Positions 61,266-62,614 of a stretch of 64,000 nt of DNA are shown here, one piece after another. The position numbers and the translations under genes were made by a program. The stretch spans positions 1 through 64,000 of the forward strand of contig JBPOIC010000014.1 in the NCBI GenBank assembly GCA_052034865.1. The letters are read 5' to 3'. The notes beneath the pieces were generated by a model that worked only from the letters and a program-made list of their open reading frames with translations, had not been told where the DNA came from and ran no database searches. The number at the start of each line of letters is the position of its first letter. Within the stretch, counting starts at the first letter, position 1. This DNA is from Myxococcota bacterium. GTDB taxonomy: Bacteria > UBA10199 > JADFYH01.

Positions 61266-61679
61266 TTAATCAAAAATCTTCAAGATCCTGACTCCCAGCC
61301 GTCCTTCCACTTCTACCAATTCTCCCTTCGCAATCAGCTTGCCATTGGCCACCAGGTCGATCGCTTCATTTGGAAGACGGTTCAACTCGACCACCTGACC
61401 CATCCGCAGGGAAACAATATCTTTAATCGTGACAGGTTTCTTCCCCAATACCGCCACAATCTGGATTGGAATGTCACTTGTCAGACTTACAATCTTTTTA
61501 TCCACCGCTTGATTGGGAGGACGTGAAGGTTGATTGGGGGGTGGATAGGGAGCGGCTCCTCGAGCTGGAGGTCGTGTGGGATGAGGTTGGGGAGCAAACG
61601 ATTCTTGCTCTTCTTCTTTCATGGGATCCATGTCGGATTCAAAACTGGAAAAATCGAACTGATCATCTTCTCTGGACAT
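61266..61679 (-). CDS. fliN: FliN/SctQ-C (SpoA domain) switch/sorting-platform protein
   Basis: 137 aa. C-terminal IPIQIVAVLGKKPVTIKDIVSLRMGQVVELNRLPNEAIDLVANGKLIAKGELVEVEGRLGVRI matches the FliN SpoA domain. GGAGG RBS. Overlaps the upstream gene stop by 1 nt (TGATG). Confidence 0.85.
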   Translation of the reverse strand: MSREDDQFDFSSFESDMDPMKEEEQESFAPQPHPTRPPARGAAPYPPPNQPSRPPNQAVDKKIVSLTSDIPIQIVAVLGKKPVTIKDIVSLRMGQVVELNRLPNEAIDLVANGKLIAKGELVEVEGRLGVRILKIFD

Positions 61680-62614
61680 TACTCGCCTCCATAATAATCG
61701 AGAATTTTTAACAGGGCTGGGGCTCCGGCGGAAAGCAGCTGGGCCAAAAAGCCACCGCCTTTACCTTCACCAATCCGAACGATGGCATTGCCCGACAAAT
61801 GGCCGTCGATCATCTGACAATGGCTTTGATCAAATAAAATGACATCCCCTTTTTCAAGCTGGTTTTTCTCGGCCATCGTGAGCGAGACCGATCCGACATC
61901 TACCCAGAGAGAAGTTTTAACGTGATGCAAAGGCTCAAAAATTTTGCTGGGGTAGCTGTTTTCAAGTTCGGCCTGATCGAGCGGGCTGCGGGTAAGAAAG
62001 GTTTCTTCAATCAAAGGATGTGGTAGGGCTAAAAGGATAAATCCCATTGTCTCTCCGACTTTTACTCTCACGTGTAAAAGCACCATCGGATTATCTTCGC
62101 TCATCGAGCTCTGGATTTCTTTGTTGGTCTTGAAGATGGATTCAAGCCTGAAGTGAATGGGGTTTAAGTCCTGACAGGCCTGAAAGATTTCATGCAGGGT
62201 TTTTAAAAGCAGATATTGCAAGACGCCTTCTTCGATGGGGGTGAGCCCTCTCATTTCTTTTGGGAAATCGCCAGGTCCTCCCAGCACGCGGTCTATCAGG
62301 GAAAAACTCAGCACGTTATCCACCCAGGCAAAGGCCTTATGGGTCAGGGGCTGTACGCCGAGCTGAGCCAAAAAACAAAGCTCAGGCAGGGTTTTTACAA
62401 AACTGCTGAAGTGGCCTTCTTCAATTTTTTCTAATGAAATCGCACAAGAAGTGTTGAACTGTTTGGATAAAAAGGCCTCCAAAGCCTTTTTAATTAGATT
62501 TTCCCGGGCAGCAGGCAGATAGCTCCACAATGCTTCTTCAATCTCAAGGTCGCGGCGGGTGAGCTTTTTAATGCCTTCAAAATTGTAGGGAGTGATATGG
62601 CGTTCGACTTCCAT
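61679..62614 (-). CDS. FliM-like protein (middle and C-terminal SpoA domains) lacking the CheY-binding N-terminal peptide
   Basis: 311 aa. YNFEGIKKLTRRDLEIEE (like YDF..P.R.S.E.LR.L in FliM), SFSLIDRVLGGPG (like FliM DRLLGG.G) and a C-terminal SpoA-like VSLTMAEKNQLEKGDVILFD. No LSQxEIDALL motif. Confidence 0.6.
   Translation of the reverse strand: MEVERHITPYNFEGIKKLTRRDLEIEEALWSYLPAARENLIKKALEAFLSKQFNTSCAISLEKIEEGHFSSFVKTLPELCFLAQLGVQPLTHKAFAWVDNVLSFSLIDRVLGGPGDFPKEMRGLTPIEEGVLQYLLLKTLHEIFQACQDLNPIHFRLESIFKTNKEIQSSMSEDNPMVLLHVRVKVGETMGFILLALPHPLIEETFLTRSPLDQAELENSYPSKIFEPLHHVKTSLWVDVGSVSLTMAEKNQLEKGDVILFDQSHCQMIDGHLSGNAIVRIGEGKGGGFLAQLLSAGAPALLKILDYYGGE

Follow-up and report, generated by a model that had tools for sequence, protein, structure and literature searches.

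A FliM-like protein without the CheY-binding peptide, encoded in an apparently nonflagellar type III secretion gene cluster

The stretch of DNA analyzed here (the window, 64,000 nt) encodes a 311-aa protein that an earlier note had described as a FliM-like switch protein starting without the LSQxEIDALL peptide that couples flagellar FliM to chemotaxis. The note had argued that the apparatus is not a chemotaxis-controlled motor and behaves more like an SctQ sorting platform, even though FliN is encoded separately as in flagella. The questions are whether this gene belongs to a flagellum, to a secretion system, or to the relic of a flagellar gene set, and whether the N terminus is truly missing.

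The reading frame is real and lies on the minus strand (Table 1). The in-frame codons upstream of the gene read ...SSF*VN-M, which places a stop three codons ahead of the ATG and leaves no ATG, GTG, or TTG between the two, and the TAA of the preceding fliK-like gene ends 1 nt ahead of the ATG, as the earlier note had it. Because of this stop and the lack of an intervening start codon, an N-terminal extension of the protein is impossible, and the check for an alternative upstream start found none. Across independent assemblies, the orthologues share one start position. A miscalled start, with the CheY-binding peptide encoded farther upstream, is therefore refuted by the sequence, and we assign it practically no probability. 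At the other end of the gene, its stop codon and the start codon of the FliN-like gene share 1 nt (TAATG); FliN is indeed encoded by a gene of its own, translationally coupled to the FliM-like gene.

The CheY-binding peptide is absent from the protein. When the family was aligned by hhalign, residue 2 corresponded to residue 30 of E. coli FliM, and the first 29 residues of E. coli FliM, which include LSQAEIDALL, had no counterpart in the family. All 37 homologues from the first search were 269 to 325 aa long, and a CheY-binding-like motif was found in 0 of the 150 best cluster representatives, for which the first 120 residues were scanned. Together with the upstream stop, these results bear out the claim that the peptide is lacking.

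Both its sequence and its fold identify the protein as a true FliM relative and not as an SctQ. The Pfam FliM family (PF02154) matched residues 44 to 203 with 85.5 bits (cutoff, 27; E = 5.7e-24), the best PDB sequence match was Salmonella FliM (E = 6e-9), and the family profile aligned with E. coli FliM at 97.5% probability in hhalign, at ~20% identity for the protein itself. Its score on the full-length equivalog model TIGR01397 was 100.7 bits, below the cutoff of 219.6. Residues 40 to 200 were modeled by AF2 with pLDDT values of 86 to 94, and in a Foldseek search of the PDB the top 18 matches were all FliM, followed by FliY, CheC, and CheX; FliM middle-domain crystal structures matched with a TM score of about 0.8, and SctQ was missing from the results at E < 1e-3. 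As in flagellar FliM (E. coli/Salmonella, T. maritima, and H. pylori), there is a CheC-like middle domain with a GGXG loop (LGGPG here) and a single, here weakly detected, C-terminal SpoA-type region, and the flanking genes are fliK-like on one side and fliN-like, with translational coupling, on the other. The motifs that had been quoted for the protein are present (ITPYNF, residues 7 to 12; DRVLGGPGDFP, residues 108 to 118), but the SpoA C-terminal domain that had been listed with them was detected only weakly, below the cutoff (FliMN_C, 17.1 bits versus 23.8, residues 229 to 274). This part of the protein stays in register with Salmonella FliM to residue 279, the TIGR01397 alignment extends to residue 282, and the AF2 model is beta-rich here at low confidence (pLDDT, 40 to 66). 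SpoA2 comes from the separate 137-aa gene; hhalign gave 9% between the two neighbors, and the FliN-like protein scored 84.9 on the SctQ model TIGR02551 and 70.1 on the FliN model TIGR02480, both under their cutoffs. The earlier note had asked for alignment against both families; the relation to FliM was upheld, and a sequence relation to SctQ was not. TIGR02551 gave 17.7 for the FliM-like protein (cutoff, 100.8), and a sequence link to YscQ was rejected (hhalign, 5.6%, over a short SpoA1-like stretch only).

The gene is part of a cluster of ~32 kb that is collinear across 33 species-level genomes of uncultured bacteria, with FliM-like proteins that are 26 to 61% identical. The order is sctV ... 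FHA/PEGA protein, TPR, sctJ, ..., fliA-like, sctI-like, fliG-like, fliH/sctL, sctN, sctO, sctP, fliM-like, fliN-like, fliO-like, sctRST, two substrate/chaperone pairs, sigma-54/FHA activator, and PEGA kinase. The activator flanks the cluster in all related loci, and the PEGA Ser/Thr kinase forms its conserved outer border. [quoted passage not shown] The listed SctS reading frame probably starts too far upstream, since its orthologues have 88 aa. The 349-aa protein is a putative secreted substrate or translocator and the 344-aa protein a putative secreted substrate; the former had no Pfam, NCBIfam, or PDB match and the latter no family or PDB match. Needle-like C termini (AAIIQNFR-like) were considered for both but found no support, as PDB-sequence profile searches were empty and hhalign against YscF gave 0.3%.

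Table 1. Features of the cluster within the window
Feature	Coordinates	Strand	Remarks
Ser/Thr protein kinase, seven PEGA domains	50210..53020	+	Pfam Pkinase 123, PEGA 240
Sigma-54-dependent activator, N-terminal FHA / YscD-cytoplasmic-like domain	53361..54764	+	Sigma54_activat 228.8, FHA 67.4
Second LcrH-like TPR chaperone, 210 aa	54904..55536	-	Position conserved in related loci; paralogue of 211-aa chaperone
Conserved 344-aa protein, Gly/Pro-rich center, conserved helical C terminus	55574..56608	-	
LcrH/SycD-type TPR chaperone, 211 aa	56685..57320	-	TIGR02552 69 bits, E 3e-19, under cutoff 104.8; TPR Pfam matches
Conserved 349-aa protein, one hydrophobic segment	57501..58550	-	Chaperone gene next; position conserved
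SctT (FliR family)	58711..59553	-	Pfam Bac_export_1 165.3 bits
SctS (FliQ family)	59563..59913	-	Pfam Bac_export_3 93.4 bits
SctR (FliP family)	59859..60653	-	NF009438 255.5 (cutoff 179); TIGR01102 yscR 232.9 (cutoff 208.6)
FliO-like protein	60729..61103	-	124 aa, TTG start; Pfam FliO 44.4 bits vs cutoff 22
FliN-like / SctQ-C-like SpoA protein	61266..61679	-	137 aa, Pro-rich N-terminal half; FliMN_C 71.8 bits
FliM-like cytoplasmic-ring / sorting-platform protein	61679..62614	-	311 aa, ATG start, without CheY-binding N terminus
SctP / FliK-like ruler, 287 aa	62616..63479	-	Flg_hook 22.1 bits, under cutoff; position conserved
SctO (YscO/FliJ-like stalk)	63569..64000	-	Window end cuts gene; YscO-like 46.4 bits vs cutoff 27

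A FliG-like gene lies 3.6 kb upstream of the FliM-like gene, just beyond the window, at the position that sctK occupies in injectisomes. It belongs to the genome of the window, because a Logan contig (L038) that adds 5 kb beyond the window overlaps the window end over 821 nt with 0 mismatches; the full SctO encoded on this contig has 168 aa. Pfam FliG_M and FliG_C scored over cutoff on the FliG-like protein, the sole PDB matches of its family were FliG, and hhalign against E. coli FliG gave 91.8%. In flagella, the EHPQ motif of FliG contacts FliM, and D288, D289, and R297 of E. coli FliG are stator-contact residues. We mapped E. coli FliG residues onto the family through an ungapped hhalign block. 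The E-x-P part of EHPQ is retained (E in 22/22 sequences, P in 16/22), as in the partner of flagellar FliM, whereas the stator-contact charges are lost, with no acidic residue at D288/D289 and no basic residue at R297 in any of the 22 sequences.

These mixed features call for weighing the possibility that the cluster encodes a divergent but genuine flagellum without chemotactic control, in which the 344- and 349-aa proteins would be hook or filament proteins. FliG-, FliH-, FliM-, FliN-, and FliO-like proteins and a FliA-like sigma factor make up the flagellar-type part of the cluster; the Pfam FliM, FliG_M/FliG_C, FliH, and FliO matches are all over their cutoffs, the ATPase is over the FliI_clade2 cutoff as well as the SctN cutoff, the sigma factor is of the FliA/WhiG type, and the genes follow the order of E. 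coli fliFGHIJK(L)MNOPQR. Some UBA10199 MAGs, moreover, have been reported to be magnetotactic and hence are presumably motile. We nevertheless consider a flagellum improbable. The injectisome-type part comprises an SctJ lipoprotein and SctI-like, YscO-like, SctR, LcrH-type chaperone, and FHA/SctD-like proteins. In place of FliF, the ring protein is of the SctJ type, a 300-aa lipoprotein with a lipobox (TIGR02544, 132.8, versus fliF, 43.8), SctR is over the SctR cutoffs and under the FliP cutoff (206.5 versus 217.45), the chaperones are of the LcrH/SycD type, the stator contacts are gone from the FliG-like family, and one fused relative of the FliM-like protein has been named SctQ by NCBI. The FlgB/C/E/G, FliE, flagellin, and MotAB families are absent from the 32-kb conserved cluster, and searches of this cluster and of the remaining 53 kb of the window detected no family of the flagellar rod, hook, or filament and none of Mot or Che. 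The FliM-like gene lies between sctP and sctR, with sctN, -O, -L, -J, and -I, as sctQ does in injectisomes (order compared with ysc on pCD1). The cluster is thus apparently nonflagellar, and the proposal that the protein serves a sorting platform rather than a chemotaxis-controlled motor agrees with its surroundings. Even if the genome encoded a second, true flagellum at another site, this interpretation of the locus would stand.

The cluster contains no recognized secretin or needle family, and no locus examined had a Bac_export_2 match that would indicate SctU/FlhB. A SctU hidden in the cluster was looked for and not found: in divergent loci, the space following sctT encodes a further conserved, uncharacterized protein, and the upstream 393-aa gene encodes a TPR protein. 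As the SctU/FlhB gene is missing from the cluster, the system may be incomplete. The missing SctU and secretin, and the scores of several components below curated equivalog cutoffs, could also suggest a decaying, functionless relic of a flagellar gene set. Such decay is very improbable in view of the intact open reading frames, the gene order conserved at the divergence given above, and the retention of conserved motifs and translational coupling; the same argument was made by Abby & Rocha for the Myxo loci (PMC3459982). Moreover, the family is large, with 191 clusters (50% identity) that match at E <= 1e-30.

In our judgment, the FliM-like protein is probably a sorting-platform subunit without chemotaxis input in an early-branching, apparently needle-less and secretin-less T3SS best known from Myxococcus (T3SS*). 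What counts against this explanation is the weak SpoA domain, the flagellar scores of several components, and the lack of SctU/FlhB in the cluster. By homology, the CheC-like middle domain would dock via its LGGPG loop onto the divergent FliG-like adaptor, which, encoded at the sctK position, would join the ring to the SctJ and FHA/SctD-like membrane rings. The single C-terminal SpoA domain is predicted, likewise by homology, to pair with the FliN-like protein. In injectisomes, SctQ is accompanied by an internally translated SctQ-C, and the FliM-like and FliN-like proteins may form an equivalent FliM:FliN building block. This block would hold the FliH/SctL-SctN-SctO ATPase complex, the FliH/SctL contact again being expected from homology, and would receive chaperone-substrate complexes, in which the LcrH-like chaperones would carry the 349-aa and 344-aa proteins. 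We propose that the ring neither rotates nor switches and that this is why the CheY-P-binding peptide is absent from the whole family; regulatory input, if any, more likely comes via the Ser/Thr kinase and FHA proteins of the cluster.

The Myxo-type T3SS* is described as acting with a Tad/Kil pilus in prey lysis. It is the closest described system (MXAN_2434-2464; the "Myxo" group of Abby & Rocha, 2012), with which we compared the cluster by published description in the case of M. xanthus. In M. xanthus, the T3SS* comprises SctD, -J, -I, -Q, -RSTUV, -N, and -L as well as several LcrH homologues, with no secretin, needle, or translocon (PMC10433427, PMC12075869), and FliO is present in nonflagellar T3SS of Myxococcota (PMC12248157). 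The cluster described here shares SctJ, SctI, an FHA/SctD-like protein, SctN, -L, -R, -S, -T, and -V, several LcrH-like chaperones, and FliO and, within its bounds, likewise lacks a secretin and a recognizable needle or translocon. The sole pointer to a common placement with the Myxo group is the fused relative mentioned above, P0328 (SctQ [Myxococcales]), which matches the family profile with an E value of 4e-38. It is one of 31 FliM-FliN fusions, i.e., proteins of SctQ architecture, among the 150 best relatives, whereas the ring protein here is split into FliM-like and FliN-like parts. The cluster further differs in having a FliG-like gene, FliG having been reported absent from Myxo systems by Abby & Rocha, in lacking SctU, and in its hosts, which belong to another lineage (MAGs labeled UBA10199 or Deltaproteobacteria).

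[quoted passage not shown] The sequences, by contrast, show no detectable relation, and SctQ carries SpoA1 and SpoA2 in one chain behind a smaller N-terminal domain (PMC4832279). The split SctQ of Pseudomonas syringae, HrcQA/HrcQB, compared here by description, is similar in consisting of two genes, the first with a single SpoA1 and the second with a FliN-like SpoA2 (PMC4832279). HrcQA, however, has a small N-terminal domain, by description like that of Spa33, and no sequence-recognizable FliM domain, and the Hrp system, unlike the cluster here, has a secretin, a pilus, and SctK.

If CheY no longer acts on this ring, its place might have been taken by phospho-threonine signaling, in which the PEGA Ser/Thr kinase would set ring assembly or activity via FHA proteins. 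This is a refinement of the sorting-platform explanation and no alternative to it, and we regard it as rather unlikely in this specific form. A PEGA Ser/Thr kinase, an FHA-sigma-54 activator, a 2xFHA protein, and an FHA-PEGA-TPR protein are always present in the cluster, and in three FliM-like relatives (P0279, P0283, and P0294) the N-terminal PFxF segment is followed by an inserted FHA domain. However, neither a phosphorylation site nor a motif for FHA binding could be recognized in the 311-aa protein, FHA domains of SctD are often phospho-independent, as noted for PrgH (PMC9907115), and the support is contextual throughout.

The FliM-like protein resembles a surviving intermediate between the flagellar C ring and the injectisome sorting platform. 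Split, fused, and FHA-inserted forms occur within one family. We tentatively suggest, as a reading with somewhat less than even prospects, that these clusters preserve the ancestral form of the cytoplasmic complex of injectisomes, a nonrotating FliG-FliM-FliN ring on an SctJ-type base, that SctQ arose from it by FliM-FliN fusion, and that chemotaxis input was lost in favor of Ser/Thr-kinase/FHA control. Were this so, the "Myxo-type" basal nonflagellar T3SS would span several phyla and, against the 2012 inventory, would possess a FliG homologue. The cluster is a widespread and conserved, apparently nonflagellar one in which all three ring proteins are still recognizable by sequence as FliG, FliM, and FliN, and its split, fused, and FHA-inserted forms provide concrete intermediates for phylogeny, cofolding, and cryo-electron tomography. 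With it, the needle-less T3SS*, which to date has been studied solely as a predation device of Myxococcus, is extended to other uncultured lineages.

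The FliM-like gene of the window encodes a 311-aa protein whose middle region (residues 44 to 203) matches the Pfam FliM family (PF02154) at 85.5 bits (cutoff, 27; E = 5.7e-24). The NCBIfam fliM model, TIGR01397, spans residues 5 to 282 with a score of 100.7 (cutoff, 219.6), and Salmonella FliM (8umd_C) was the best solved-structure sequence match (residues 61 to 279; E = 6e-9). An earlier note had described a FliM-like middle and a SpoA C-terminal domain; the former was borne out, and the latter is faint by sequence, with FliMN_C matching residues 229 to 274 at a subthreshold 17.1 bits (cutoff, 23.8). 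The note's central observation, that the CheY-P-binding N terminus is missing, held up. By alignment, E. coli FliM has ~29 additional N-terminal residues, including LSQAEIDALL, and when the family profile was compared with E. coli FliM (hhalign probability, 97.5%), family residue 2 corresponded to FliM residue 30. As had been expected, there is no upstream start: the TAA of the preceding gene lies 1 nt before the FliM-like ATG, and three codons ahead of that ATG the FliM-like frame has a stop, with no other possible start codon between the two.

The absence of the CheY-binding peptide extends to the family. A first homologue search returned 37 FliM-like proteins (269 to 325 aa), all metagenome or MAG derived, and an exhaustive profile search covering 1.84 billion cluster representatives gave 191 matches at E ≤ 1e-30. 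None of the best 150 of these 191 had a CheY-binding-like motif in the first 120 residues; 118 of the 150 were no longer than 335 aa and started no more than a few residues from the conserved P-[FY]-x-F segment, while 31 were at least 400 aa long (414 to 548 aa). Because all 10 of the 31 long relatives that were scanned contain FliM_M and a strong C-terminal FliN-type SpoA domain, the long forms are, judging by domain content, FliM-FliN fusions with the architecture of SctQ. One fused member is named [quoted passage not shown] at NCBI. In three of the best 150 (P0279, P0283, and P0294), from Schekmanbacteria and Acidobacteriota MAGs, an FHA domain is inserted behind the N-terminal PFxF segment. 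Split and fused forms of the ring protein coexist in one FliM-like family.

The AlphaFold2 model of the window protein (35-sequence alignment) reached pLDDT values of 86 to 94 at residues 40 to 200. Its C terminus is beta-rich and of low confidence, as expected, since the SpoA domain normally folds as an intertwined dimer. The top 18 Foldseek matches in the PDB were all FliM (Salmonella C-ring FliM, E = 3e-16; FliM middle-domain crystals, TM ~0.8), followed by FliY, CheC, and CheX; SctQ, SpaO, and Spa33 were absent at E < 1e-3. The SctQ model TIGR02551 scored 17.7 against a cutoff of 100.8. The N domain of injectisome SctQ is smaller than that of FliM and is not a CheC/CheX fold (McDowell et al., PMC4832279); by this criterion, the protein is FliM, and not SctQ, in modeled fold and in sequence.

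FliN is encoded separately, as the note had said, and the FliM-like gene lies in a cluster that continues beyond the window. One Logan contig of the same sample shares 821 nt with the end of the window at 0 mismatches and shows that this genome continues into SctO, SctN, FliH/SctL, a FliG-like protein (P0176; 319 aa), an SctI-like protein, and a FliA/WhiG-type sigma factor. Scanning one genome per species gave 33 loci, labeled by MAG name as Deltaproteobacteria, UBA10199, "Pseudomonadota," Myxococcales, and Bdellovibrio; FliM-like identity ranged from 57% down to 26%, and by phmmer mapping the gene order was essentially the same in all 33. The upstream order comes from two JGI loci (L035 and L036) with precomputed Pfam annotation.

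Features of the cluster and its surroundings (window coordinates unless a locus is named: L038, Logan contig; L036, JGI locus; L002, JAXMHI010000002.1)
Feature	Position	Strand	Remarks
YscO-like stalk	cut by window end	-	first in minus-strand order
SctP/FliK-like	between YscO-like and FliM-like genes	-	
FliM-like	61679-62614	-	ATG start
FliN-like, 137 aa	start overlaps FliM-like stop	-	
FliO-like	after FliN-like gene	-	
SctR	after FliO-like gene	-	both SctR cutoffs passed, FliP cutoff failed
SctS	59563-59913	-	mechanically listed ORF, 116 aa; 55-nt overlap with sctR
SctT	after SctS	-	
349-aa protein, no detectable family	57501-58550	-	single conserved hydrophobic segment
LcrH/SycD-type TPR chaperone	after 349-aa gene	-	
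344-aa protein, no detectable family	55574-56608	-	Gly/Pro/Gln-rich center
Second LcrH-like TPR chaperone	after 344-aa gene	-	
Sigma54 activator with FHA domain	53361-54764	+	
Ser/Thr kinase with seven PEGA domains	50210-53020	+	
PP2C phosphatase	2289-3050		far from T3SS cluster
Upstream half, part 1			argJ border, SctV (FHIPEP), DUF4442, 2xFHA protein, TPR protein
Upstream half, part 2			FHA/YscD_cpl-PEGA-TPR protein, two small unknowns, TPR, SctJ lipoprotein
Upstream half, part 3			two unknowns, sigma factor, SctI-like, FliG-like, FliH, SctN
2xFHA protein	L036:4026-5078		
FHA(YscD_cpl)-PEGA-TPR protein, 724 aa	L036:6436-8610		
FliA/WhiG-type (sigma-28-like) sigma factor	L038:94-879; L002:3775-4674		inside cluster; TIGR02479 139 bits, cutoff 189.6
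SctN orthologue	L002:7141-8517		
fliN-like to sctT	L002:10972-13700		split over several frames

As its orthologues are 88 aa, SctS probably starts at an internal Met near 59829. The frame breaks in JAXMHI010000002.1, the closest genome-collection relative, seem to reflect frameshifts from assembly or sequencing and not pseudogenes, since every other locus is intact. Ser/Thr-kinase and FHA components frame the cluster. In the remaining ~50 kb of the window, the other sizeable ORFs are housekeeping genes (RecN, SMC, LigA, SecA, ProC, biotin synthesis, NadA, etc.), and no chemotaxis or flagellar families were found.

No secretin, recognizable needle, rod, hook, flagellin, or MotAB was found in the ~32-kb cluster, and in this injectisome-like setting the note's reading of a type III secretion (T3SS) sorting platform outside chemotaxis is sound. 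The cluster (window 50210-64000 plus L035 and L036) has SctV, R, S, and T but no SctU/FlhB (Bac_export_2) gene. The ring protein, which has a lipobox, a C-terminal TM segment, and a short tail, is of the SctJ type (TIGR02544, 132.8, versus fliF, 43.8). The ATPase passes the cutoffs of both FliI_clade2 (642; cutoff, 629.8) and SctN (627.3; cutoff, 604.75), as would fit an ATPase placed between these two branches. The 724-aa protein may stand in for SctD. The 349-aa and 344-aa putative substrates had no Pfam, NCBIfam, or PDB match, and comparison gave no support for a likeness of their C termini to those of needle proteins. The 344-aa protein has a conserved helical C terminus (in relatives, ...IKSILDIFFQTNSAIIRN..), and more distant loci have a different 360- to 460-aa protein, ending ...QKLISQMMEEFAQVVETLTN..., in the first of the two positions.

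The FliG-like profile matched only FliG among PDB sequences (3usw; E = 1e-7), over the middle and C-terminal domains, and hhalign gave 91.8% over 231 columns with E. coli FliG and no sequence link to YscK (0.9%). The top 12 Foldseek matches of its AlphaFold2 model (pLDDT, 81.8) were all FliG, with weak global E values; PscK is also a fold match. When E. coli FliG residues were mapped through the ungapped hhalign block of this low-identity alignment, E125 and P127 of the EHPQ motif were retained in 22 and 16 of 22 sequences, respectively. The positions of D288 and D289 were acidic in 0/22 (17/22 have R or K at 289), and that of R297 was basic in 0/22. Charge interactions between FliG and MotA were reportedly established by Lloyd and Blair in 1997 and by Zhou, Lloyd, and Blair in 1998; given these, the missing charges argue, as far as a low-identity alignment can be read, that the FliG-like ring does not engage a stator.

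The cluster order matches both fliFGHIJK(L)MNOPQR of the E. coli flagellum and I-J-K-L / N-O-P-Q-R-S-T of ysc on pCD1, with the FliG-like gene at the place of sctK and the FliM-like and FliN-like genes at that of sctQ; in another relative, the FliG-like gene directly follows sctJ. The closest described system, compared by published description, is the Myxococcus xanthus T3SS* (MXAN_2434-2464; PMC10433427, PMC12075869), which has SctD, J, I, Q, RSTUV, N, and L and several LcrH homologues and has no secretin, needle, or translocon. Unlike the cluster studied here, it has SctU. FliO has been reported in the Myxococcota non-flagellar T3SS (PMC12248157). In the 2012 inventory by Abby and Rocha (PMC3459982), the Myxo systems have no FliG; the cluster studied here, by contrast, encodes a divergent FliG homologue.

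The findings are most simply read as a non-flagellar T3SS in which FliG-, FliM-, and FliN-type proteins still make up the cytoplasmic complex. The FliM-like middle domain would bind the FliG-like adaptor, and its SpoA region would heterodimerize with the FliN-like protein, whose surface would hold FliH/SctL-SctN-SctO; the LcrH-like chaperones would deliver the 349-aa and 344-aa proteins. A CheY-binding peptide would be of no use in a ring without rotation or switching, and a ring protein of the FliM type would, in a non-flagellar T3SS, have no reason to bind CheY, which would explain the absence of the peptide. A Ser/Thr kinase and a number of FHA proteins are always present, and some FliM-like relatives have FHA insertions, which suggests that the ring may be under phospho-threonine-based control. 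Soto et al. (PMC9907115) reported that the SpaO N domain, as modeled by AlphaFold, is similar to the middle domain of FliM and that it binds OrgA (SctK), an echo of FliM-FliG; through the FliM-like family, this link becomes visible at the sequence level. That the three C-ring proteins can all be recognized in one injectisome-like cluster is of interest for T3SS evolution.
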